The notes beneath the pieces are model-generated. The model worked only from the letters and a program-made list of their open reading frames with translations. It was not told the DNA's origin and ran no database searches. From Candidatus Spongiihabitans sp. (GTDB lineage: Bacteria; Pseudomonadota; Gammaproteobacteria; Arenicellales; Poriferihabitantaceae): 64,000 nt of DNA. The stretch spans positions 724,414-788,413 of the forward strand of contig NZ_OZ252047.1 of NCBI RefSeq assembly GCF_965247905.1. The letters run 5' to 3'. This document shows, one piece after another, positions 753-62,856 of this stretch. Each line of letters starts with the position of its first letter. Positions within the stretch are counted from its first letter, which is position 1. The position numbers and the translations under genes are program-made.

Positions 753-2015
753 TTATGCCGACCTTTCATATACGGGAAACCTGCCGCACAGTTCGACCAC
801 TTTTTCCTTTACGGCTTGAATCACCGAATCGTCCTCCAAGTTTTCCAGCACATCACAAATCCAGCCGGTGATGTCCCGCGCCTCGCCGACGCCAAATCCG
901 CGCGTGGTCATGGCCGGAGTGCCCAGCCTCAGGCCGCTAGTCACAAACGGCGATCTCGGATCATTGGGCACGGCGTTTTTGTTCGCCGTGATATTCGCCC
1001 GCCCCAATGCGGCGTCGGCATCTTTGCCGGTGATGTTCTTGTCAATCAAGTCCAGCAGAAACAGGTGATTGTCGGTGCCGCCGGAAACAATGTTGTAGCC
1101 GCGCTTCTGGAATACCTCAACCATTGCTTTGGCGTTGTCCACCACGCTCTGCTGATAGTCTTTGAAAGAAGGTTGCATAGCCTCCTTGAACGCAACCGCT
1201 TTGGCGGCAATGACATGCATCAACGGCCCGCCCTGGGTGCCCGGAAAAACCAATGAGTTTAATTTTTTGGTGATGGCTTCATTCTCCCGCGCCAGGATCA
1301 TGCCGCCTCTGGGGCCGCGCAAGGTTTTATGGGTGGTGGTGGTGGTCACATCGGCGATCGGCACCGGGTTAGGATAATGACCGGTCACCACCAACCCGGC
1401 AACATGCGCCATATCCACAAACAAGTAGGCGCCCGTCGCGTCCGCGATGGCGCGAAATCGCTGCCAATCCATGATGCGTGAATAAGCGGAAAATCCCGCC
1501 ACGATCATCTTCGGCTTATGCGTCTTTGCCAGCGTCTCCACTTCGTCGTAGTCCACCTCGCCGGTGGCGTCGTCCAATCCATACTGAACCGCATTATAGA
1601 TTTTCCCCGAAAAACTGACCGAAGCACCGTGGGTCAAATGTCCGCCATGCGCCAGGCTCATGCCGAGAATGGTGTCGCCCGGTTCAACCAACGCCATATA
1701 CACCGCTAAATTCGCTGAAGATCCAGAATGAGGCTGGACATTGGCATAGTCCGCATCAAACAGTTTTTTCGCGCGCTCAATGGCCAGGGCTTCGGCGATA
1801 TCAACGAATTCGCAGCCGCCGTAATAGCGTTTGCCGGGATAGCCTTCCGCGTACTTGTTGGTCAGCGCCGACCCTTGCGCCGCCAACACTCGAGGACTGG
1901 TGAAGTTCTCCGAAGCGATGAGTTCTATGTGCTGTTCCTGGCGTTGTTCCTCTTTGACCATGGCGGCCCACAATTCGGCATCCAGATCAGCGATGGTTTC
2001 ATTTTTTTTAAACAT
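753..2015 (-). CDS. glyA: serine hydroxymethyltransferase
   Basis: [69 protein letters not shown] is near-collinear with E. coli GlyA. ATG at 2015 with GGAG 8 nt upstream; the track start at 2027 is a TTG extension. Confidence 0.95.
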
Positions 2016-2078
2016 GTTCGGCTCCAAATGAATTAGTCGGCAAAACTTACGGCAGTCGCCGTGAATTGTAGCATGCCG

Positions 2079-4275
<2,197 letters not shown>

Positions 4276-4461: not shown

Positions 4462-4540
4462 GTCATTCCAACGAAAGAACGTCACCCCTGTGAAAACAGG
4501 GGTTGGAATCCAGTTAAATATGCGTCCCGCGCAGCGGGAC
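4462..4540 (+). repeat. Two-hairpin repeat module (GTCATT-stem-loop-stem-AATCCAGTTAAATAT + GTCCCGC-GCA-GCGGGAC)
   Basis: Member of the GTCATT...AATCCAG family also seen at 12690, 14552, 14617, 21209-21790, 29035-29600 and 62714. Confidence 0.85.
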
Positions 4541-4681
4541 ACGACCGCCATGGATGGCGGAAGTGCCGATTTTGCAGGAGCAAAAATCTGCCAAAACCGC
4601 AAGCCGCTGACCTTTCCAAAGGTGGTGGACCAATACAAAATGTTGCATATCAGGTAAAAACCCGTTATGTTTCGGCGGTGT

Positions 4682-4768
4682 GCCGGGGTGGCGAAATTGG
4701 TAGACGCGCCAGATTCAAAATCTGGTTGGGGCAACTCAGTGTCGGTTCGAGTCCGACCCTCGGTACCA
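4682..4768 (+). tRNA. tRNA-Leu (anticodon CAA), class II with long variable arm, CCA encoded
   Basis: Hand fold: acceptor GCCGGGG/CCTCGGT (two G-U pairs). D arm GCG-AAATTGGTAGA-CGC. Anticodon arm CCAGA-TTCAAAA-TCTGG. T arm GTCGG-TTCGAGT-CCGAC, then ACCA. Confidence 0.9.
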
Positions 4769-4962: not shown

Positions 4963-5098
4963 GATGACAAATAGCAGGGGATGACAAATAGCAGGGGATG
5001 ACAAAGGGCAGGGGATGACAAATAGCAGGGGATGGCAAAGGGCAGGGGATGGCAAAGGGCAGGGGATGACAAATAGCAGGGGATGGCAAAGGGCAGGC
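4963..5098. repeat. 17-bp minisatellite x8 (gatgRcaaaKRgcaggg)
   Basis: Eight head-to-tail units in two sequence variants (gatgacaaatagcaggg / gatggcaaagggcaggg), read directly. Confidence 0.95.
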
Positions 5099-5232
5099 AA
5101 ACAATGTATGTTCGGGCTCAGACACATAAGAGACTGTTAACCTGGCCCGGCTAGTGCGCTTAAAGCAGGTCAGGCCGGCGGCGTTTGATGGCAGGGTGGG
5201 TCAAGGAGTTCAAGGCAACCAGTCCGGTCACC

Positions 5233-5288
5233 CCCATCTCGGAAGTGGGACTTTAGTCCCGCCATTTGCAATGGCTTGGCGAGGCTGA
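5233..5288 (+). repeat. 56-bp dispersed repeat, copy B
   Basis: 55/56 identical to 4382-4437, same orientation; the two copies flank tRNA-Leu. Confidence 0.9.
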
Positions 5289-5628
5289 AGCCTCACTTCC
5301 GGTCGAACGTGGGACTTTAGTCCTGCCGCCCAACCAGCCTAAATGGAAGGGTTGCGTCGAGCCAATGCAGTCGTTATGCGTTCCGCCCGCTGTATGAAGG
5401 GCCGTTGACGGTGACCGCGATCAACCAGGAACGGGTCCATTACCAGTGGACCTATAATCATGCCGACCACACGATAGTTTGGATTTAATGATGCCAATGG
5501 CGTATTATCGGCAACTCACCCTGGCTGCCTGATTTTGTCTCATATGTGGTGAACCCGGACAATGTATAGCGAATTATTCGAGGACGCGTTAGACTATCGA
5601 CTGGAAAATCAGACAAGAGCGTTACAAA

Positions 5629-12661: not shown

Positions 12662-12689
12662 CCCTGATACGCACCCGCCCCCCCGGCCC

Positions 12690-12722
12690 GTCATTATCGG
12701 GCTTGACCCGATAATCCAGTGG
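12690..12722 (+). repeat. Hairpin repeat GTCATT-ATCGGG-CTTGA-CCCGAT-AATCCAGTG
   Basis: An identical copy is at 14617-14648. Confidence 0.9.
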
Positions 12723-12933
12723 AAAAACACAGCGGCAACGGCCGCTGACCTTAGCATAGAAACTTCATCGCGCCCCCGGGACAGTCGCGGAATAGTCCCA
12801 GGATAGTCCCAGGATAGTAATGCGTTTGCGCTCCCGGGTTCGTGGTTACGGTCACGGGTCAAACGGTTAGTGATAAACCAGGTTGAGTTTGCTATGATGC
12901 AGTCGAATGTGCCACAATCGCGGGGAAACGAGC

Positions 12934-14440: not shown

Positions 14441-14551
14441 GATTGAATCGATTTATGTGAACAGGGGTCAAGTCAACAGCAGCGGGTTGACGACTCACCG
14501 TACATCGACATTATATTGAATTCCCCGCGTTAAAGCGCGGCATCAATGTTG

Positions 14552-14648
14552 CACTGGATTCCAGCTTGCGCTGGAATGACAAAGCAGGGCGGGAATTGAC
14601 GACCTTTACTTAGATCGTCATTATCGGGCTTGACCCGATAATCCAGTG
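14552..14648. repeat. Two hairpin repeats of the GTCATT...AATCCAG family (14552-14580 minus orientation; 14617-14648 plus)
   Basis: Reverse complement of 14552-14580 is GTCATT-CCAGC-GCAA-GCTGG-AATCCAGTG. 14617-14648 is GTCATT-ATCGGG-CTTGA-CCCGAT-AATCCAGTG. Confidence 0.9.
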
Positions 14649-14752
14649 AAACACGCGCGGCGAAGCCGCATCCTCATCCCCCAAACTTGCAATTGATGGC
14701 GCCATAAACTTACAATTGTCGAATATAACAAAAACCAGTTGCCCACGCCATA

Positions 14753-20901: not shown

Positions 20902-20909
20902 ATTGAAAG

Positions 20910-21891
20910 GGTTCAAGATACTTTAAGGTATAGTGAAATGGTCATACCTAATTGTTCTATAAATGAAAAACAAGTATGTCATCGTTGCCGAATTTCGGAG
21001 AATAAATTCAGGGCGATTCCACGGCTGTTTTGCCTTGATATCGAGGCTTGCAAAGTCGCTCGAATCACTGGCGTCTCTGGCCCGGCGACCAGCCGATTGT
21101 ATACTCAAATCAGACAACGCATCGCCGGGCAATGCGAGCGTATGTGTTCACTGATTCATTGCCCGTTTTGTTCCTTTCCAGCGGTGTTTTAGCACCGCCC
21201 TCTCGGCCGTCATTCTCGCGCAGGCGGAAAAAACCGCCCTCCCTGCCGTCATTCTCGCCGCAGGCGGGAATCCAGTTAAATATCTGTCACGCGTAGCGTG
21301 ACTCCTTTTGGCATCCGGCTTTGCCAGACACAAACCGGCGGCTACGCCGCAAAGGAGTCCGGCTACGCCGGACGGCATATTCCACTGGATTGCCCGGCCA
21401 ATAATAATATGGGCCGGGCAATGACGACCCTTATTTGTCATTCTCGCCGGCAGGCGGAAAAAACCGCCCTCCCTGCCGTCATTCTCGCCGGCAGGCGGGA
21501 ATCCAGTTAAATATCTGTCACGCGTAGCGTGACTCCTTTTGGCATCCGGCTTTGCCAGACACAAACCGGCGGCTACGCCGCAAATGAGTCCGGCTACGCT
21601 GGACGGCATATTCCACTGGATTGCCCGGCCAATAATAATAATATGGGCCGGGCAATGACGGATTATAGGTAATGGAGCACGTTTTAGTGTCACGCTTTGC
21701 ATGACAATTATTTACCATTGTCTCCCCAACCCGTCATTCTCGCCGCAGGCGGGAATCCAGTTAAATATGTCGTCCGGCGTAGCCGGACTCCTTTGAAAGA
21801 GTGTGAGTTTCGCTTCAATATGCGCCACGAAAATAGGTGTCAATATCTGCTGAAATCTATCCGAAATCGACCGCTTAAAGTATCTTGAACC
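20910..21891 (+). mobile_element. Non-autonomous IS1595/IS1016-like element (transposase ends retained, catalytic core replaced by hairpin-repeat modules)
   Basis: Perfect 18-bp terminal inverted repeats ggttcaagatactttaag (20910-20927 / 21874-21891). Flanking 8-bp direct repeat attgaaaG / attgaaaA. N-terminal HTH-like remnant RLFCLDIEACKVARITGVSGPATSRLYTQIRQRI and C-terminal remnant LKECEFRFNMRHE. The interior is a ~235-bp unit x2 of nested hairpins. Confidence 0.7.
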
Positions 21892-22020
21892 ATTGAAAAT
21901 TACGGCAATGACCAAAAATCGCGGTTGCGGAAATGGCGGCACGATCAATTGCACACGATCAATTGCAATGGCGCGGATTAAAGTATAATCGATCCATTGT
22001 AATTATTCATAGGTGACACC

Positions 22021-22452
22021 ATGCTGGGGTTAGCAACATTCTTTTCATCGATATTGCTCGGATCCATGCTGTTTTTCGCGAGTATCGTCGCGCCGTCGAT
22101 ATTCAAAAGCCTTGAGGACGATGAGGCGCTTAAATTCACCCGTTATGTGTTTCCAAAATACTACTTATGGGGAATCGCGTTATCCGCGCTGGCCACCGTG
22201 CTTGCGCTCGCCGCCCGGTCCTACACCTGCATACTGTTATCGATTATCTTTTTAGGGTTTGTGTACGGTCGCCAGATTCTGATACCTAAAATGACCAGCG
22301 CCAAAGACCAATGGCTTGCCAGCGACACAGCGCAGGATAAATCACGCTATAAATCCTTGCACAAGCGAAGCGTGATCATTAACGCCACACAGATGGCACT
22401 GCTTCTCATTATTGTCGTCGCTACTCAGATCTTGCACCTCCACCAACCTTAG
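22021..22452 (+). CDS. small 4-TM membrane protein (DUF4149/TMEM205-like, tentative)
   Basis: MLGLATFFSSILLGSMLFFASIVAPSIFKSL...FPKYYLWGIALSALA; family assignment is from memory only. Confidence 0.45.
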   Translation: MLGLATFFSSILLGSMLFFASIVAPSIFKSLEDDEALKFTRYVFPKYYLWGIALSALATVLALAARSYTCILLSIIFLGFVYGRQILIPKMTSAKDQWLASDTAQDKSRYKSLHKRSVIINATQMALLLIIVVATQILHLHQP

Positions 22453-22520
22453 CGTTTGCCCGAATATCCGCGGTTGTTGAAAACAGGTTTGTTGAAAACG
22501 AGACGCACCCGCTTATTATT

Positions 22521-22772
22521 ATGACGGAGTCAAGGCCACGACGAAAATCAAATCGACGCAGAGGTGCGCACCAACATCCCAGGCTCGATACCACCGTGCC
22601 ATCGCCCTGTTTATCGGTATGCCGCTTCGACGGCGAACCTTTTTGCAGAGGATGTTATCGAAATGCCGATGAGATTCGTGAATGGATCATCATGTCCAGC
22701 GAGCAAAAGCGGGCAGTTTTGGCGCTTATTGCGGCGCGGCGCGAACAGGAAACCGGCGAACAAATTTGGTAG
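22521..22772 (+). CDS. DUF1289-family small Cys-rich protein
   Basis: SPCLSVCRFDGEPFCRGCYRNADEIREWIIMSSEQKRAVL matches the DUF1289 CxxC...CxGC pattern. Confidence 0.6.
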   Translation: MTESRPRRKSNRRRGAHQHPRLDTTVPSPCLSVCRFDGEPFCRGCYRNADEIREWIIMSSEQKRAVLALIAARREQETGEQIW

Positions 22773-22861
22773 CCGCAGGACGATTACGGCAGGACGATCA
22801 CGGGCGAGCGCGGCCTATTCTCGTGGGCGAATTGACTTATCGAACGTTGCTTGCGCCGTAT

Positions 22862-24394
22862 TCAACCGATCAACTGAAGAAGCCTATCCGACCCGACCGC
22901 ATCGACTATTTCCCCGCCTTCAACCAGACGCGCCGCGGCGTTTATGTCGGTTGCCATAAATCGATCATGGTCGAGTCGAGCAACTTTATTCCTCAGCACG
23001 GCAATGACAATTTGCAATGGCTCGCTGGTCTTGATCGGCGCTCGAAATTGCACGCCCTGGGACCCGGTAAGCAGTTCGATGGCGACGATATTGGCGAGAT
23101 TCCGGTTCATGCCCATCAGCCGATATGCGCCATGGCAGGCCATGGACACGTGATCTTCCTGATTCGCGCTGGTTGGCGTTGAATCAATCGAGCAGGGCGC
23201 CGCTGTTTGCTTGTTTTCGGACATCAATGCCGCCGCCGTTACTTCCGCGACCATAAAACCACAGTTCAGCCCGGGCTGCGGCGATAAAAATGCGGGCAAT
23301 CCATAATTCAGCGCAGGATCAACCACGGTGGCGATGCGCCGTTCCGTAATCGACCCGATTTCCGCAATCACCAAAGCGCATTGATCGGCAGCGAAGGCAA
23401 TCGGCTCGGCGTGGAAATTACCCCCGGAAAGAATTTCGTTGCTGTCGGCGATCACCAACGGATTATCAGTCACCGCATTGGCTTCGATTGCCAAGGTATT
23501 TGCGACCTGGCGGAGTTGATCAACACAAGCCCCCATAACCTGAGGCTGGCAGCGCAAACAATAGGGGTCCTGCACCCGCTCGTCATGCTCACGATGAGAT
23601 TCCCGAATAGCCGATCCATGTAGCAGTGCGCGCAAGGATTCGGCAACATCGAGTTGACCGCGGTGGCCTCTGAGCGCGTGAATTTCCGGCCTGAACGGTG
23701 CGGTGGACGCCATCATCGCGTCGCCGGACATTGCACCAGTGACCAATGCGGATTGGCAATAACGCCAGGTATCAAATAATCCGGCCAAAGCCAGCGCAGT
23801 GGATACCTGAGTGCCATTAATCATTCCCAGACCTTCTTTTGGCCCGAGTTCCAACGGCCTTAGCCCGCATTTTTTCAAAGCCATATCGGCGTTGCGCGTC
23901 TGCCCCTGATAATTTATCTGACCTTCTCCAATCATCGCGGCAGTCATATGCGCCAACGGTGCCAGATCCCCGGATGCACCTACCGAGCCTTTGGCGGGAA
24001 TGACTGGAATCAAGTCTTTATTTAGCATGGCTTCCAGTTGCTCGATCACCTGCCAGCCCACGCCGGACGCACCGCGCCCAAGCGAAGCCATCTTCAACAG
24101 CATAACCAGGCGCACTACGCCATCAGGCAGATTCGGTCCAACACCACAACAATGGGAAAGGATTAGATTTCGTTGAAGCCGGGTGGTTTGCTGCACGGCA
24201 ATTCGCGTATTGGCCAGTTTGCCGAAGCCAGTGTTGATACCATAAACCGCATCGTCGCCCTGTACGGCGGCGCGAACAATGTCAGCCGCACGATCAACGG
24301 CGGCTTTGCAGCCACGCTCGATTAGAAGTTCGCCGGGTTTGCGGTAAACAGACTCCAATTGTTTCAGGGTTAACTGGCCAGCGGTTATTTTCAT
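22862..24394 (-). CDS. hutH: histidine ammonia-lyase
   Basis: 510 aa. MIO-forming [15 protein letters not shown] motif and the GINTGFG motif. Confidence 0.93.
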
Positions 24395-24416
24395 GGTTTA
24401 ATTTTCATGGCGGTTA

Positions 24417-25832
24417 TCACGATTTGGCAAGCTCATCAATGGCACGCTTGAATGCGCGCGCAATTTTTTCCTGATGGACATGCTGGCCATGGTCGATCAC
24501 CTTGACCCCGCCGACATAGACGTCCTGAATCAAGTTTTCATTGCCAGAGAACAACCAACTGTCCATCAAGTCCTGTTCGGTTCTATGGTACAGGCGCGGA
24601 TGTTGGTTATCGAGAACGATGAAGTCTGCGCGTTGTCCGGCGGCTATGCTGCCAATTTTTGCGCCGCTGCTTTGACGCCCACCGGCCAGCGCGGAACAAT
24701 ACAATGCCATGCCGGTATTCAGGTTTTGCTTGTCAGCCATGACATTGCGTTGTTGATGCAACAACCGCTGGCCATATTCCAGCCAGCGCAACTCTTCCAC
24801 CGGGCTTACCGAAATATGGCTGTCCGAGCCAATCGCCCACACGCCGCCTTGATTAACATAGTCGATCAAGTTGAAAAAACCATCGCCCAGATTGGCTTCG
24901 GTGGTCGGGCATAATCCAGCGACCGCGCCGCTTTGCGCCAAGCGCGCGGTTTCCTGATCATTCATATGGGTGGCGTGAATCAGGCACCATTGTTGATCCA
25001 CATCGAATCGATTGAGCAACCACTGCAACGGGCGTTCGCCGCACCACGCCATGCACTCATCGACTTCCCTGATTTGCTCGGCCACATGCATATGAATTGC
25101 CGCAAGTTGCGTTTTGGGGAGCGCATCAATGACTTCGTTGAGCAGTGGTTCTGTGATCGCCCTCAGCGAGTGCGGCGCGATGCCCACGGCGCAATTGCGG
25201 TGTTCTGAATTTCTTGCCGCGTCAAACAAACTATGAACAATTTCACAAAACGGCTCGACATTATTCAAAAACCGTTGCTGTCCGGCGAGCGCGTCTTGTC
25301 CGCCAAATCCGCCGTAGCGATAGAGCACCGGTAGCGCGGTAAAACCGATACCAAGATCACTGGCTGCCTGCATACACTGCAAAGTCATCTCCGCTTTGTT
25401 GGCATAGGCATCGCCCTTTTGATCGTGATGAAGATATTGGAACTCCCCGACATGGGTGTATCCCGCTTTCAACATCTCCAGATATAACTGCTGTGCAATA
25501 GCGTACAGGTGCTGGGGTTGAATGCGCTCAAGATAGTGATACATCGCCACGCGCCAGGTCCAAAAACTGTCTATGGCTTTATGCTCATTTTCGGTATCCC
25601 AACCGGCTTTTTCCCCCAGACCGGCCAGGCCACGTTGATGGGCATGGGAATGGCAGTTCGGCATCCCCGGAATGATGCATCCAGCCACGATTTGGTATTC
25701 GGTGCTATTCTTTGGCCTGAGTCGTTGTGCGTCAACAAAATCGCCATTCGGGTTGATTTCCACTGCGACATTTGTGGCCCAGCCATCGGCCAATAAAACG
25801 GATTCAAATAGTAGTTTCGAGCTTGATGTCAA
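24417..25832 (-). CDS. hutF: formimidoylglutamate deiminase
   Basis: PGMPNCHSHAHQRGLAGLGE...DSFWTWR...LYLEMLKAGYTHVGEFQYLHH...GSDSHISVSPVEELRWLEYGQRL, collinear with Pseudomonas HutF as I recall it. Confidence 0.85.
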   Translation of the reverse strand: MTSSSKLLFESVLLADGWATNVAVEINPNGDFVDAQRLRPKNSTEYQIVAGCIIPGMPNCHSHAHQRGLAGLGEKAGWDTENEHKAIDSFWTWRVAMYHYLERIQPQHLYAIAQQLYLEMLKAGYTHVGEFQYLHHDQKGDAYANKAEMTLQCMQAASDLGIGFTALPVLYRYGGFGGQDALAGQQRFLNNVEPFCEIVHSLFDAARNSEHRNCAVGIAPHSLRAITEPLLNEVIDALPKTQLAAIHMHVAEQIREVDECMAWCGERPLQWLLNRFDVDQQWCLIHATHMNDQETARLAQSGAVAGLCPTTEANLGDGFFNLIDYVNQGGVWAIGSDSHISVSPVEELRWLEYGQRLLHQQRNVMADKQNLNTGMALYCSALAGGRQSSGAKIGSIAAGQRADFIVLDNQHPRLYHRTEQDLMDSWLFSGNENLIQDVYVGGVKVIDHGQHVHQEKIARAFKRAIDELAKS

Positions 25833-25908
25833 ATTGCACCTCTACCATCGCAGAAACGCTGGCGTTAAAGTCAATGTTGTTGTGCCATGATAAAGTATGA
25901 CCTTCCAA

Positions 25909-25966
25909 ATGACAATCACAGACAGGATAATCACAACATGACAATCACAGACAGGATAATCACAAC
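25909..25966 (+). repeat. 29-bp perfect tandem duplication x2 immediately upstream of, and partly homologous to, the hutI start
   Basis: atgacaatcacagacaggataatcacaac x2, followed by atgataatca (the hutI start). Confidence 0.95.
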
Positions 25967-27184
25967 ATGATAATCAAAGATGCATGTCTTGCCACCATGA
26001 GCGAAGACGGGCGCTATGGTCTGATTGCCGATGGCGCGATCAGCATCCGCGATGGACGAATTCAATGGGTTGGAGCGCGCCAGACTGTGCCGGAAGATAT
26101 CATGGAAGATATCGCGGACGGTGCTGATGTGCATGATTGCGGCGGCAGGTTGGTCACCCCCGGGCTGATTGACTGCCATACCCATATTGTCTATGCCGGG
26201 GATCGGGCCGCCGAGTTTGAGAAACGTCTGCAGGGTGTCAGTTATCAGGCAATCGCCAAAGCGGGCGGTGGGATTGCGGCTACGGTCAGCGCAACCCGAG
26301 CGGCGACCAAGGATGATCTGATTGCCCAATCCTTGCCGCGTCTCAGGCGCTTGATGACAGAGGGTGTCACCACGATTGAGATCAAATCCGGTTACGGACT
26401 CGATACTGAAAACGAAATTAAAATGCTCGGTGCCGCCGATGGGCTGGCCGAGAGCGCGGGTATTCGGGTTCAAAAAACATTTCTGGGCGCTCATGCTGTG
26501 CCACCAGAATATGCCGGGCGTCAACACGACTACATCAATCTGGTGTGCCAAGAGATGCTGCCCGCAGCTTACGCAGCGCGCCTGGTTGATGCCGTGGATG
26601 CCTTCGCTGAAGGCATTGCTTTTTCGGTCGAACAAGTTGAGCGGGTATTTGATGCCGCAAAAAAACTCGGCCTGCCGATTAAGCTGCATGCTGAACAGTT
26701 AAGTCATTTGGGCGGTGCGAAAATGGCGGCTGGCAAAGGCGCACTTTCCGTCGATCACCTTGAGTATTTACCGCCCGAAGAGGTTGCGGATTTGGCCAAA
26801 GCTGGCACGGTCGCCGTATTACTGCCGGGCGCTTTTTATTTTTTAAAAGAAACAAAATTGCCCCCGATCCATGCGCTTAGAGAAAATCAGGTGCCGATTG
26901 CCATTGCCACGGATTGCAATCCTGGAAGCTCGCCGGTAACTTCCCTGCTATTGACCATGAACATGGCGTGCACATTTTTTTCCCTGACCCCGGCCGAGTC
27001 GCTGAGAGCGGTTACGCTCAATGCGGCAAAGGCATTGGGGTTGCAAGATGAAATCGGTAGCCTAGAAGTGGGCAAGCACGCGGACCTGGTAATATGGGAT
27101 ACCAACAATCCAGCCGATTTGGCGTACAATATCGGGTTGAATCCGTGCCACAGGATTATGGTCGGCGGAAAATGGCAGGCGTGA
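25967..27184 (+). CDS. hutI: imidazolonepropionase
   Basis: [26 protein letters not shown]...KLHAEQLS...[10 protein letters not shown]. Confidence 0.92.
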
Positions 27185-27241
27185 AAATGACACGCTCGGC
27201 AAACTAATTTTCAGCACCGCAATTTAATCCGGTAAAACAAA

Positions 27242-28914
27242 ATGTTACTTGGGCGAATAGACAAAACCCGATCGATTAAATCGCCCACTGGAACGAAACT
27301 CAGTTGCAAGAGCTGGCTGACCGAAGCCGCATTTCGCATGATCCAGAACAATCTGGATGCGGAAGTGGCAGAAAAACCCGAGGAATTGATTGTCTATGGC
27401 GGCATTGGTCGCGCCGCTCGGGATTGGCAAAGTTTTGACAAAATTCTGGAATGCCTTTCGCAACTGGAAGATGATGAAAGTTTGCTGGTGCAATCAGGCA
27501 AGCCGGTCGGCGTATTCAAAACGCATGCCGACGCGCCTCGGGTATTGATTGCAAATTCCAATCTGGTGCCGGCCTGGGCTAACTGGGATCATTTCAACGA
27601 GCTCGACCGCAAAGGCTTGATGATGTACGGGCAAATGACCGCCGGATCGTGGATATATATCGGCAGTCAGGGGATTATCCAGGGCACCTATGAAACATTC
27701 GTAGAAGCCGGGCGCCAACATTTTGATGGCGACACCAAGGGAAAATGGATTTTCACTTGCGGGCTTGGTGGCATGGGCGGCGCACAACCATTGGCAGCGA
27801 CTATGGCGGGTTATTGCATACTTTGCGTGGAATGTGATGCCACCCGTATCGACTTTAGACTACAAACTAAATACCTTGGCCACAAAGCAAAACATCTGGA
27901 TCAGGCTTTAGCCATGATCCAGCGTGCCTGCGCGAAAGGGGAAGCTATTTCTGTCGGCCTGCTTGGCAACGGTGCTGAAGTTATTGCTGAGTTGGTCAAA
28001 CGCAATATCAAACCTGACCTGGTTACCGATCAGACTTCGGCTCATGATCCTGTGAACGGTTATTTGCCGATCGGCTGGAGCATGGAGAAGTGGCAACGGG
28101 AAAGAAAAAATAATCCTCAAAAAGTTGCCGAACAAGCACGAAAATCCATGGCCTATCATGTCAAGGCTATGCTGGCGTTTCATAAACAAGGCGTGCCTAC
28201 GGTCGATTATGGCAATAATATTCGCCAGGAAGCGCTGAATTATGGGTCGAAAATGCATTTGATTTCCCGGGATTTGTGCCTGCTTACATTCGTCCGCTAT
28301 TTTGCCGTGGGGTCGGGCCGTTTAGATGGGTGGCACTGTCCGGCGATGCGCAAGACATTTATAAAACCGATGCCAAGGTGAAGGCGTTGATTGCGGATGA
28401 TCCGCATTTGCACAATTGGCTGGATATGGCTCGGGAAAAAATCCGTTTTCAGGGACTGCCGGCCAGAATTTGTTGGGTCGGTCTGGGCCACAGACACCGG
28501 ATCGGTTTGGCGTTTAATGAGATGGTGCGCAACGGTGAATTAAAGGCGCCGATTGTTATCGGCCGGGATCATCTCGATGCCGGGTCTGTGGCCAGCCCGA
28601 ACCGAGAAACCGAATCCATGCTTGATGGCTCCGATGCGGTTTCTGATTGGCCATTGTTAAATGCCTTGCTGAGCACGGCTGGCGGTGCGACCTGGGTTTC
28701 ATTGCATCATGGTGGTGGCGTCGGTATGGGTTTTTCTCAACATGCCGGGCTGGTGATCGTGGCTGATGGCACCAAAGCTGCCGATAAACGCCTGGCTCGG
28801 GTGCTGTGGAACGATCCCGCCGCCGGCGTGATGCGACATGCTGATGCCGGATATAAACAGGCCAGGCAATGCGCGCGGGAGAACAATCTGAACCTCGGCG
28901 CCATTAAAATTTAA
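27242..28914 (+). pseudogene. hutU: urocanate hydratase, interrupted by a -1-nt frameshift near 28244-28250
   Basis: ORF 27242..28381 carries the N-terminal 2/3 ([19 protein letters not shown]...[10 protein letters not shown]...[10 protein letters not shown]). ORF 28276..28914 carries the rest in another frame ([24 protein letters not shown]...HHGGGVGMG). Confidence 0.85.
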
Positions 28915-29880
28915 GGTTCAAGATACTATAAAGGATGATTTCGGATAGATTTTAGCAGATATTGACACCCATTTTCGTGGCGCATATTGAAGCGAAACTC
29001 ACACTCTTTCATAAGGAGTCCGGCTACGCCGGACGACATATTTTAACTGGATTCCCGCCTGCGGCGAGAATGACGGGCTGGGGGGACAATGGCGAATCGG
29101 AAGGCGATGAGTCCTTTTGAGAAGACAATGGTAAATAATTGTCTCGCAAAGCGTGACACTAAAACGCGCTCTGGCGTAGCCGGACATTTTCTCTCGTGTG
29201 CTTTGGCATCTCAACTCGCCTTTGCCCTCTCAATTCACCATTACCTATCATTTGTCATTGCCCGGCCCATATTATTATTGGCCGGGCAATCCAGTTATTA
29301 AACCGTTCGGCGTAGCCGAACTCCTTTGCGGCGAGGCCGCCGGTTTGTGTCTGGCAAAGCCGGATGCCAAAAGGAGTCACGCTACGCGTGACAGATATTT
29401 AACTGGATTCCCGCCTTCGGCGAGAATGACGGCAGGGAGGGCGGTTTTTTCCGCCTGCCGGCGAGAATGACAAATAAGGGTCGTCATTGCCCGGCTTGTT
29501 CCGGGCAATCCAGTGGAATATGCCGTCCGGCGTAGCCGGACTCCTTTGCTTTGATGCCGCGCCGTTCGATGCGAGAATGACGGCCGAGAGGGCGGTGCTA
29601 AAACACCGCTGGAAAGGAACCAAACGGGCAATGAATTAGTGAACACATATGCTCGCATTGCCCGGCGATGTGTTGTCTGATTTGAGTATACAATCGGCTG
29701 GTCCCTGGGCCAGAGATGCCGGTGATTTGTGCGACTTTGCAAGCCTCGATATCAAGGCAAAACAGCCGCGGAATCGCCCTGAATTTATTCCCCGAAATTC
29801 GGCAACGAATGACATGCTTGTTTTCATTTATAGAACCATTAGGTATGACCATTTCACTATACCTTAAAGTATCTTGAACC
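28915..29880 (-). mobile_element. Second non-autonomous IS1595/IS1016-like element, inverted relative to 20910-21891
   Basis: Ends ggttcaagatactataaag (28915-) and ctttaaagtatcttgaacc-type (-29880). Same N- and C-terminal transposase remnants on the minus strand, and the same kind of hairpin-module interior. Flanks are aaatttaa / aaaattaa. Confidence 0.7.
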
Positions 29881-29963
29881 AAAATTAATGGTGCAGAAGC
29901 TCAGCGCCCATAGGGAAGGCTTAACTTCCTAGGACCCTGTATTATTATTTGCCATGCAATACG

Positions 29964-30884
29964 CTATAAAGACAGCAGCACTTCTTTGTTAACCGCGATG
30001 TAGCCATTGGAAATTATACTGATGTGCGGTTTTAGCAACCTATGCGCATCGGGCAATTGATGAAACGGAATCGCCGGATAAGCGTGATGCTCAACATGAA
30101 ACGACATGTTCCAACAAACCCACCGCATCAGTTTATTGGTTAACGTAGTGCGCGTGTTTCGCAACATATCCGGCACTAATGGGCATAACGCATGTTCAGC
30201 GAGCAAAAATGCTCTCAAGAAAGGCTGCCCAATCAACATCGGTAGCACCCAATACTTCCAGAGCACCGCAGACTCGCCGAGCAGGCTAAGCGACAACAAT
30301 AAAAGATAAATCACCAGAAATATCCGCGCTTCCCTAACAATTCCAGTTTGTTTAACGTCGCTAACAAAGTGGGTGTGATGATTGCCCATCGCAAACAAAA
30401 CCAGGGCTTTTACCTGCCCAATCCAATAATCCACGCCAGAAAGATTGCGCAGATATTGCCCGGTTGTTTTTGGCTTTTCAGAATCCAGCCCAAAATCCAG
30501 CCCAAAATCCAGCTCAGGGTCTTTGCCTGGAATTTGCGTATAGCGATGGTGCGCCAGATGAAATGCCTGAAAATATTTTGGCGGCAATACCAACACCAAC
30601 CCGCTGATCCACCCAACCACTGCATTTAGCCGCGGTGATTTAAACGCTGTTTTGTGTATCGTTTCGTGTAGCGGGGCAAATAAAAAAGTCAGCAGCCCGC
30701 CAAGCACAATAATAGTCAATCCTTGCATTATCCAATTGTCGAAACTTGAAAGCAGTATAACCGCGACCAGGATGACCATGCCGTGCTGAAATATTTTAAC
30801 CAACCCCAGCGCGTCGCTTCTCTTCATCAAGCATCGTAGTTGATCTTTATCTAACGGCGATGACGCGGATTCTGATTTGGACAT
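29964..30884 (-). CDS. membrane fatty-acid desaturase family protein
   Basis: Three His boxes: HETIHK, HLAHHRYTQ, HVEHHAYPAIPF. Confidence 0.8.
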   Translation of the reverse strand: MSKSESASSPLDKDQLRCLMKRSDALGLVKIFQHGMVILVAVILLSSFDNWIMQGLTIIVLGGLLTFLFAPLHETIHKTAFKSPRLNAVVGWISGLVLVLPPKYFQAFHLAHHRYTQIPGKDPELDFGLDFGLDSEKPKTTGQYLRNLSGVDYWIGQVKALVLFAMGNHHTHFVSDVKQTGIVREARIFLVIYLLLLSLSLLGESAVLWKYWVLPMLIGQPFLRAFLLAEHALCPLVPDMLRNTRTTLTNKLMRWVCWNMSFHVEHHAYPAIPFHQLPDAHRLLKPHISIISNGYIAVNKEVLLSL

Positions 30885-30967
30885 TTTTTATAAAAACTTT
30901 GCATAGCCAATGTTGTTTTGCGCTTCATTGAGGTACGCTTAGGATACCATAAACCAGCAATTTATCT

Positions 30968-62660: not shown

Positions 62661-62713
62661 GAAATTTTTTCCTCACTATTAATGACAAGGGCTATTGCCC
62701 TTGGGTTTAATAG

Positions 62714-62741
62714 CTGGATTCCCGCCTGCGGCGAGAATGAC
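62714..62741 (-). repeat. Hairpin repeat of the GTCATT-CTCGCC-GCAG-GCGGG-AATCCAG type
   Basis: ctggattcccgcctgcggcgagaatgac, same core as 21248, 21733 and 29040. Confidence 0.9.
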
Positions 62742-62856
62742 GGAAGTTTTGTTTTTCGTCATTACGAAACACAAGTAAGCGCAGGATATTTTTCGTTAGG
62801 CAAGGCGCGCAACACGGCATAACGGAAAATAGGCAAGCGTGAACGACAAGACATCA

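Follow-up and report, generated by a model that had tools for sequence, protein, structure and literature searches.

Probable IS1595-family derivatives filled with arrays of host hairpin repeats in a Candidatus Spongiihabitans chromosome

In this work we have examined a 64-kb stretch of DNA, called the window throughout, from a 3,034,563-bp contig of Candidatus Spongiihabitans sp. (Gammaproteobacteria, Arenicellales, Ca. Poriferihabitaceae), and in particular a 982-bp element at window positions 20910-21891 (element A, or copy A) together with a second copy, copy B. We propose, with a probability of about 0.8, that both are non-autonomous derivatives of an insertion sequence (IS) of the IS1595 family, whose core was replaced by an array of host repeats in one ancestor, and that this ancestor was dispersed and its copies then diversified. 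The arms of the elements descend from an IS of this family, their ends carry terminal repeats and lie within target duplications, the junctions between IS and repeat modules are common to the copies, the modules also occur independently of the IS, and their hairpins match the Neisseria Transformation Sequence (NTS) and the Ssn-related motif (SRM). The parts of both copies are as follows; coordinates without a locus name are positions in the window.

20902-20909, left target-duplication copy of element A: ATTGAAAG, agreeing in 7 of 8 positions with 21892-21899
20910-21140, plus strand, left IS arm of copy A: 18-bp terminal repeat, leader and about 60 N-terminal codons of the helix-turn-helix (HTH) region; 89.6% identical to nucleotides (nt) 1-231 of the IS at locus L001
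21141-21208, plus strand, module M0, the first non-IS module at the left junction: TATGTGTTCAC...CACCGCCCTCTCGGCC
21209-21660, plus strand, 231-bp composite unit in two copies, delimited from Tandem Repeats Finder, repeats and folds
21247-21275, plus strand, NTS/SRM-type hairpin CGTCATTCTCGCCGCAGGCGGGAATCCAG; identical copy at 21732-21760, and a copy with a loop one base longer at 21477-21506
21661-21731, plus strand, remnant of a longer module, GATTATAGGTAATGG...CCCCAACC, with internal deletions of 67 and 39 bp relative to copy B
21732-21793, plus strand, terminal basic unit at the right junction: NTS-like hairpin, AATCCAGTTAAATATG and a GTCCGGC-GTA-GCCGGAC hairpin
21794-21891, plus strand, right IS arm of copy A: last 30 codons (KECEFRFN...RPLKVS), stop and terminal repeat 21874-21891; 93.8% identity with the final 97 nt of the IS at L001
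21892-21899, right target-duplication copy of element A: ATTGAAAA
28915-29880, minus strand, copy B, 966 bp, inverted relative to A: right arm about 28915-29010, modules about 29011-29650, left arm about 29651-29880

Ends of the element and the parent insertion sequence

The 18-bp terminal inverted repeat GGTTCAAGATACTTTAAG stands at 20910-20927 on the plus strand and at 21874-21891 on the minus strand without a mismatch, and the whole window holds four matches to it against 0.02 expected from shuffles. An initial annotation of this DNA had described perfect 18-bp terminal repeats and a near-perfect 8-bp flanking duplication, and both descriptions hold for element A, where ATTGAAAG and ATTGAAAA differ at one position. 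It had also proposed that the two ends of a transposase gene are retained. This is correct for both termini, but the counts are about 60 codons and 30 codons plus the stop rather than about 70 and about 35. The native transposase ATG of copy A (20963) has been thrown out of frame by a 1-nt deletion, and the annotated open reading frame (ORF) is 20938-21192. Between the arms, 653 bp of modules have taken the place of IS nt 232-640 (about 409 bp), which encode all of the catalytic core. We considered whether this middle part could be a diverged IS core and rejected the idea, as the modules have no similarity to IS nt 232-640.

Where did the arms come from? Longer relatives were reached by a protein search with the fused remnants, and these relatives carry the IS1595 DDE domain. 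The arms that remain, of 231 and 98 nt, share 88-94% identity with the full-length elements of 738-740 bp at L001 and L113, which have identical 18-bp ends. The element at L001 (4948-5685, 738 bp) has a transposase gene with two frameshifts, while those at L006 (947-1686, 740 bp, 227-amino-acid (aa) ORF), L113 (3948-4687, 740 bp) and L112 (2949-3678, 730 bp, 224-aa ORF, from another Spongiihabitans genome) are intact. When the L001 transposase was rebuilt across its two frameshifts (227 aa), it matched the IS1595 model NF033547 with 164 bits (cut-off 75) and PF12762 with 93 bits. We therefore regard the window copies as derivatives of an IS1595 member and not as autonomous members, because their core is deleted, leaving them without a DDE transposase of their own, while L001, whose ends are identical, matches the family models. 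The IS1595/IS1016-like origin proposed in the initial annotation is thus supported by the identity of the arms to full-length elements and by the family matches of L001.

Elements of the IS1016 subgroup measure about 700-745 bp, and the parent elements (738-740 bp) have both this size and the catalytic signature of the subgroup (DESYFG...HINGIENF...KECEFRFN). KECEFRFN is also present in the rebuilt L001 transposase. The proteins of L006 and P0015 contain ELDES(D/Y)FG, HINGIENF and LKECEFRFN, with spacings 1-2 residues off the pattern of ISApl4, a 712-bp member of the IS1016 subgroup with a ...HINGIENF...KECEFRFN-type signature and AT-rich 8-bp duplications (PMC12561309). Like that subgroup, the parent encodes a single 227-aa DDE transposase, its terminal repeats are short and perfect, and its 8-bp duplications are AT-rich; the window copies, which have lost all of the catalytic core, are unable to transpose autonomously. 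In a plasmid collection the best annotated relative had 54% protein identity, and because it is this distant the parent IS is probably unnamed. A blastn search of plasmids with the element itself returned no match.

The AT-rich target duplication is likewise of the IS1595 type (8 bp, range 7-9 bp; PMC12561309). It is preserved in 7 of 8 positions at both window copies, and terminal repeats with perfect 8-bp duplications were found in seven relatives, so that the family size given for it in the initial annotation is seen directly at other copies:

L002, perfect 8-bp duplication: TAAAATAA
L006, perfect 8-bp duplication: TTTACTAA
L013, perfect 8-bp duplication: AATAAAAA
L091, perfect 8-bp duplication: TAAAACAA
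L112, perfect 8-bp duplication: TATTTTAA
L113, perfect 8-bp duplication: TAGATCAA
L116, perfect 8-bp duplication: TTATTATA

An IS with identical 18-bp ends is also present in L006, L012 and L063 (Ca. Oxydemutatoraceae, Chromatiales), in L013 and L044 (Ca. Azotimanducaceae, Pseudomonadales) and in L036 (Ca. Azophilus). It spans three gammaproteobacterial orders, mostly metagenome-assembled genomes (MAGs) with names suggesting an association with sponges, and this distribution suggests horizontal spread of the IS among co-resident symbionts. One small IS with identical ends is thus documented across three orders of sponge-associated Gammaproteobacteria. The hairpin modules, unlike the IS itself, were seen in loci of Poriferihabitaceae only. 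One flank, CATTTATTAA, adjoins the left IS end in L001 (4938-4947) and the right IS end in L055 (6258-6267), and L001 has no duplication matching it; two IS copies seem to have recombined here, for example at the end point of an inversion or deletion, in a Poriferihabitaceae MAG.

Hairpin modules inside and outside the elements

The centre of element A is a tandem duplication, as the initial annotation had stated, though its unit is 231 bp at 21209-21660 (Tandem Repeats Finder: 2.0 copies, 96% matches) and not about 235 bp at 21205-21660. The small hairpins named there (GGCGG-A6-CCGCC, GTCACGC-GTA-GCGTGAC and TCCGGC-TAC-GCCGGA) are all present. Each 231-bp unit is made of a split NTS-like hairpin carrying the A6 hairpin as an insert, a complete NTS/SRM-like hairpin, a palindrome of about 120 nt in which two basic units are inverted around a centre, and, on the other strand, a GCCCGGCC hairpin. 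The fold of a single unit is much stronger than that of its shuffles (DNA, z = -6.4; RNA of the two strands, z = -8.3 and -7.2). The longer module, of which copy A keeps a remnant, is undeleted in copy B and also at L001 5751-5990 and L020 1-150, and in the alignment of A with B the 39-bp deletion lies between CCATTGTC direct repeats. The only long ORF inside the element (184 aa, 21148-21702, minus strand) runs through the modules and gives peptides such as LTGFPPAGENDG; it had no significant family match, and almost certainly it is an artefact of the repeats, of the sort annotated as a hypothetical protein. Rfam, searched for the window at gathering thresholds and for the element at E-value thresholds, reported nothing besides a tRNA at 4682-4765.

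The basic unit of the modules consists of GTCATT-stem-loop-stem-AATCCAG, followed after 9-13 nt by a second hairpin. The stems vary and yet stay complementary (CTCGCC/GGCGGG, GCCCGG/CCGGGC, CCAAC/GTTGG, ATCGGG/CCCGAT, CCAGC/GCTGG); 95.8% of stem positions were paired and 6 of 9 pairs were changed on both sides, in a set that was pre-selected for pairing and so leans towards structure. Because of this selection, the hairpins outside the elements are the fairer control: nine of the 14 framework hairpins in the window lie inside the two copies, and the five outside them compare with 0.015 expected. Solo units lie at 4462, 12690, 14580 (minus strand), 14617 and 62741 (minus strand):

4462-4545, plus strand, solo basic unit outside any IS: GTCATT-CCAAC...GTTGG-AATCCAGTTAAATATG, then a CCCGC-GCA-GCGGG hairpin
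12689-12760, plus strand, solo basic unit outside any IS: GTCATT-ATCGGG-CTTGA-CCCGAT-AATCCAG and a GCGGC hairpin
14510-14680, no strand assigned, intergenic inverted pair of basic units, including TGTCATTCCAGCGCAAGCTGGAATCCAG on the minus strand, which fits the SRM pattern
62680-62743, minus strand, solo NTS/SRM-type hairpin, identical to those within the elements, with a second hairpin

The first of these lies about 135 bp upstream of the tRNA gene at 4682-4765 (Rfam, 57 bits). Elsewhere, M0 is found without an IS arm in L055 (about 978-1055), and L021 has it in a different context and also contains arrays. The long module of copy B recurs in L001, in a repeat field that adjoins the IS. The modules are not derived from the IS. 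They belong to a separate, genome-wide family of NTS/SRM-like hairpin repeats that also lies free in intergenic DNA, and are therefore not peculiar to the element, a point that goes beyond the initial annotation.

What kind of repeat are they? The NTS, CGTCATTCCCGCGMAVGCGGGAATCYRG, is an extended, oriented form of the dRS3 repeat of Neisseria intergenic mosaic elements (NIMEs); the GIY-YIG enzyme SsnA cuts single-stranded DNA at it, and the degenerate SRM is enriched in animal and plant symbionts, according to the 2025 description of the Ssn nuclease family (PMC11893778). NIMEs are arrays of dRS3 hairpins spaced by repeat families of 50-150 bp (PMC1797815). The hairpin CGTCATTCTCGCCGCAGGCGGGAATCCAG fits the SRM pattern and differs from the NTS consensus by no more than 3 edits; the window has seven sites this close to the consensus. 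Eight sites in the window matched the SRM pattern itself, where shuffles gave 0.25 and 732 kb of unrelated loci gave none, and four of the eight lie within the two elements. Both the motif and the oriented hairpin of the NTS/SRM class are thus present.

The likeness to NTS/SRM repeats and NIMEs extends to hairpins with conserved oriented flanks and covarying stems that alternate with modules of 40-200 bp, and the enrichment of SRM in symbionts (PMC11893778) agrees with a sponge-symbiont host. The arrays form a NIME-type mosaic that varies between loci, a resemblance of architecture only and not of common descent. The host differs, being here a gammaproteobacterium of the Arenicellales, and so does the setting, since the present array lies inside transposon ends while ISs in NIMEs have been described only as opportunistic insertions into arrays. 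Repetitive extragenic palindromes (REPs) and their mosaics (BIMEs) are also short extragenic hairpins found singly, in inverted pairs and in mosaics, a comparison drawn in PMC11893778, but the conserved flank here is GTCATT...AATCCAG and not a GTAG-type tetranucleotide, and no RAYT transposase, the partner of REPs, was found, although no search was aimed at one. We see a resemblance only.

As to the element as a whole, it shares with miniature inverted-repeat transposable elements (MITEs) the terminal repeats, the target duplication, the lack of a transposase and the multiple copies. A MITE is well below its parent in size, usually under about 300-500 bp, whereas the module-bearing copies have 637, 966 and 982 bp, mostly longer than the 738-bp parent, and what lies inside them is no collapsed IS. 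The same IS does have true short MITEs, of 230 bp (L013), about 155 bp (L031) and about 270 bp (L115). The element differs from mobile insertion cassettes as well, because its passenger is a structured non-coding repeat array and not genes. On the basis of this architecture we describe the cassette as a putative transposable NIME-like array.

Copies, dispersal and competing explanations

Copy B carries GGTTCAAGATACTTTAAG without mismatch at 29863-29880 (minus strand) and with two mismatches at 28915-28932 (plus strand), and its flanks AAATTTAA (28907-28914) and AAAATTAA (29881-29888) agree in 7 of 8 positions. Its arms are 94.2% and 91.8% identical to those of A. When A and B were aligned, both IS/module junctions proved to be common to them and module indels to separate them, as had been expected of a second copy with a like deletion and other modules. 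A third complete module-bearing copy, of 637 bp, lies at L116 2973-3609 between perfect 8-bp duplications (TTATTATA), and in its array a deletion joins two GTCCGGC hairpins. An ORF on the source contig is identical to ORF P0134 of L116, which places L116 in the genome of the window or in one almost identical to it.

Further copies were found in number. The source contig has at least 27 distinct annotated remnant ORFs, of which about 20 end in ...QCE(R/H)MCSLIHCPFCSFPAVF, the common IS/module junction. Four others, of the P0006 group, have an alternative junction, QCERRSPATPDG..., consistent with an internal deletion in the array. The right junction of copy A recurs in copy B, L020 and L116, and the left (L114) and right (L020) junctions of the window type are also present in another Poriferihabitaceae genome. 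The scans with the terminal repeat were less informative: the 17-nt pattern was too short for the genome collection, where the matches listed were mostly due to chance and the source genome was not among them, and a metagenome scan with the 18-mer gave single matches only, apparently also by chance. The common junctions, the duplications and the module indels support the idea, already put forward in the initial annotation, that a non-autonomous ancestor spread and then diversified internally.

The hut region of Ca. S. thiooxidans (L117) is collinear with window 21983-28914 at 94.4% identity and has no element at either site. Site B is empty there: the hutU stop is followed by AAAATTTAA and TGG, versus AAATTTAA, copy B, AAAATTAA and TGG in the window. 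Site B alone aligns across the insertion point, with 3 nt of homology beyond it; there is little homology past the insertion points because both copies sit exactly at breaks of synteny with Ca. S. thiooxidans (20902-21982 and 28915-30892).

We hypothesize that the cassette arose in a single ancestor, in which IS nt 232-640 were exchanged for an array of the intergenic mosaic repeats of the host lineage, perhaps through illegitimate recombination or through a deletion beside a repeat field. The near-full-length IS in L001 abuts a module field, the IS in L055 is truncated at nt 474 and joined to modules, and an 11-nt sequence of the IS at the left junction, GCCGGGCAATG, matches the GCCCGGCC hairpin module; these three observations suggest that an IS copy recombined with an array next to it, either illegitimately or through short homology. 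Since both terminal repeats and the subterminal sequence survived, the cassette could be moved as a unit by a transposase supplied in trans, and in this way it may have multiplied to at least 27 copies. After dispersal the arrays were reshaped to give copies of 637, 966 and 982 bp: segments were duplicated in tandem, others were deleted between short direct repeats, and near-palindromic hairpins recombined. Such later changes are visible in the copies themselves, in the nearly identical 231-bp duplication of copy A, the 39-bp deletion and the joined GTCCGGC hairpins of L116. The hairpins may interact with an Ssn nuclease.

Several results weigh against this explanation. The four remnant ORFs matched no family in Pfam or NCBIfam, because they are too short and their catalytic core is deleted. 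The arms differ by 5-8% between the copies and the window duplications are conserved in 7 of 8 positions, which points to activity that was old rather than ongoing. The window and about 190 kb of related loci yielded no gene of the GIY-YIG/Ssn type (cd10448) with approximate probes, which did detect one in the unrelated L045; ssn genes are typically flanked by the motif. Intact cognate transposases, for which the initial annotation had called, do occur on many large contigs of other assemblies, both congeneric and from other sponge symbionts, but the source contig has no member of the closest intact-transposase clusters, and for this reason mobilisation in trans is something that we infer. The IS family may now be stranded in this genome, which fits the divergence of the copies and the decayed duplications. 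Finally, modules and IS fragments meet at other junctions too, namely at IS nt 474 in L055, at an inverted M0 beside the right end in L021 and at the alternative junction of the four ORFs, so that their association cannot have been one event.

Could the modules themselves then be the active party? A nuclease or recombinase directed by NTS/SRM, or recombination between modules, might repeatedly invade ISs and delete their cores, giving many independent origins. Besides the diversity of junctions just described, to which IS nt 231 and 641 in the window add their own, this would account for the L001 IS of intact length that directly adjoins a module field, and the 11-nt match could seed such recombination. 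Independent invasions should not, however, arrive at the exactly identical junctions of about 20 remnant ORFs on one chromosome and of the copies in a second genome, and it is this sharing of junctions that weakens the idea. The copies also lie at unrelated sites with their own 8-bp duplications, and the alternative junction can be explained by deletion within the array. We consider repeated invasion unlikely.

A different possibility is that the element has been domesticated, with the HTH peptide acting as a regulator that binds the terminal repeat or inhibits transposition, and the array as a terminator, an insulator or a site of recombination control. It is true that the ORF of the HTH region (76-84 aa) is open in nearly all of the 27 and that an upstream ATG substitutes where the 1-nt deletion removes the native start. 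Several module hairpins resemble terminators (8 versus 1.9 in shuffles), and both window copies are intergenic and immediately follow gene ends. Such a position is, however, typical of tolerated insertions. The ratio of nonsynonymous to synonymous changes (pN/pS) among derivative copies ranged from 0.4 to 1.2, with just 9-12 substitutions per pair, and showed no clear purifying selection; a promoter scan found no promoter-like site, and the ORF continues into module sequence. Domestication thus seems quite improbable to us.

Is there a unit at all? Two unrelated IS fragments might flank an ordinary repeat field, or the repeats might have been misassembled. Fragments truncated at one end do exist (L021; L116 at about 5080-5573; L114), the assembly is derived from a metagenome and hutU has a 1-nt homopolymer frameshift. 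Against this stand three complete copies with correctly inverted paired ends, common junctions and their own duplications, the 27 ORF variants annotated on one contig and the like architecture in independent assemblies. An artefact is excluded by the complete copies together with the independent assemblies, and we give hardly any credence to the notion that no unit exists.

Non-autonomous IS derivatives are common. An IS core exchanged for NTS/SRM-type hairpins, as we propose for a single ancestor of the window copies, joins two topics that have been studied separately, the biology of ISs and MITEs and the unexplained expansion of Ssn-related hairpins in symbionts and pathogens. It offers a testable route by which repeats could spread, hitch-hiking between transposon ends, and the copies form a natural set of dated insertions from which gain, loss and conversion in the arrays can be rebuilt. 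Tentatively, we would go one step further: perhaps the terminal-repeat cassette has served as a vehicle for NTS-like arrays, dozens of which were scattered around the symbiont chromosome by an IS1595 transposase acting in trans. Were this doubtful step correct, the vehicle would explain a large share of the SRM repeats of this genome and would be the first concrete mechanism for the multiplication of NTS/SRM. If an Ssn nuclease were present as well, each insertion would plant single-strand cleavage sites that alter local recombination or DNA uptake.

Genes and repeats around the two copies

The inverted copies A and B bracket a block of 7 kb with a DUF4149 gene, hutH, a 471-aa gene of the amidohydrolase family, hutI and hutU. 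We rejected the idea that A and B form a composite transposon around the hut genes, since a separate duplication flanks each copy and there is no match between the outer flanks. Their inverted arrangement could permit inversion of the hut block.

The gene hutU (urocanase, 27242-28914) falls into two overlapping ORFs because one nucleotide is deleted from a run of G at about 28243, while its ortholog in Ca. S. thiooxidans (L117 10276-11949) is intact with 557 aa; the split gene is either a pseudogene or the result of a homopolymer sequencing error. To the left of the synteny break the window has a 642-aa N6/N4 DNA methylase, versus PhyH and SnoaL genes in L117. To the right, copy B and a fatty-acid desaturase stand opposite a four-gene cluster of L117 with two N6_N4 DNA methylases and a restriction-endonuclease-like (RE_NgoFVII) protein. 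Beside its hut genes L117 also has a 628-aa ORF (1547-3433) with Pfam matches to the REC1 and second domains of Cas12a (Cpf1), which is absent from the window.

Some further small repeats were noted. A tandem repeat, CACGATCAATTGCA in two copies, lies at 21940-21967, just to the right of copy A. The divergent intergenic region upstream of hutI holds a 14/29-bp repeat (ATGATAATCACAGAC-like) at 25909-25980, and a perfect 12-bp repeat of 2.7 copies lies at 30482-30513 within the desaturase gene.

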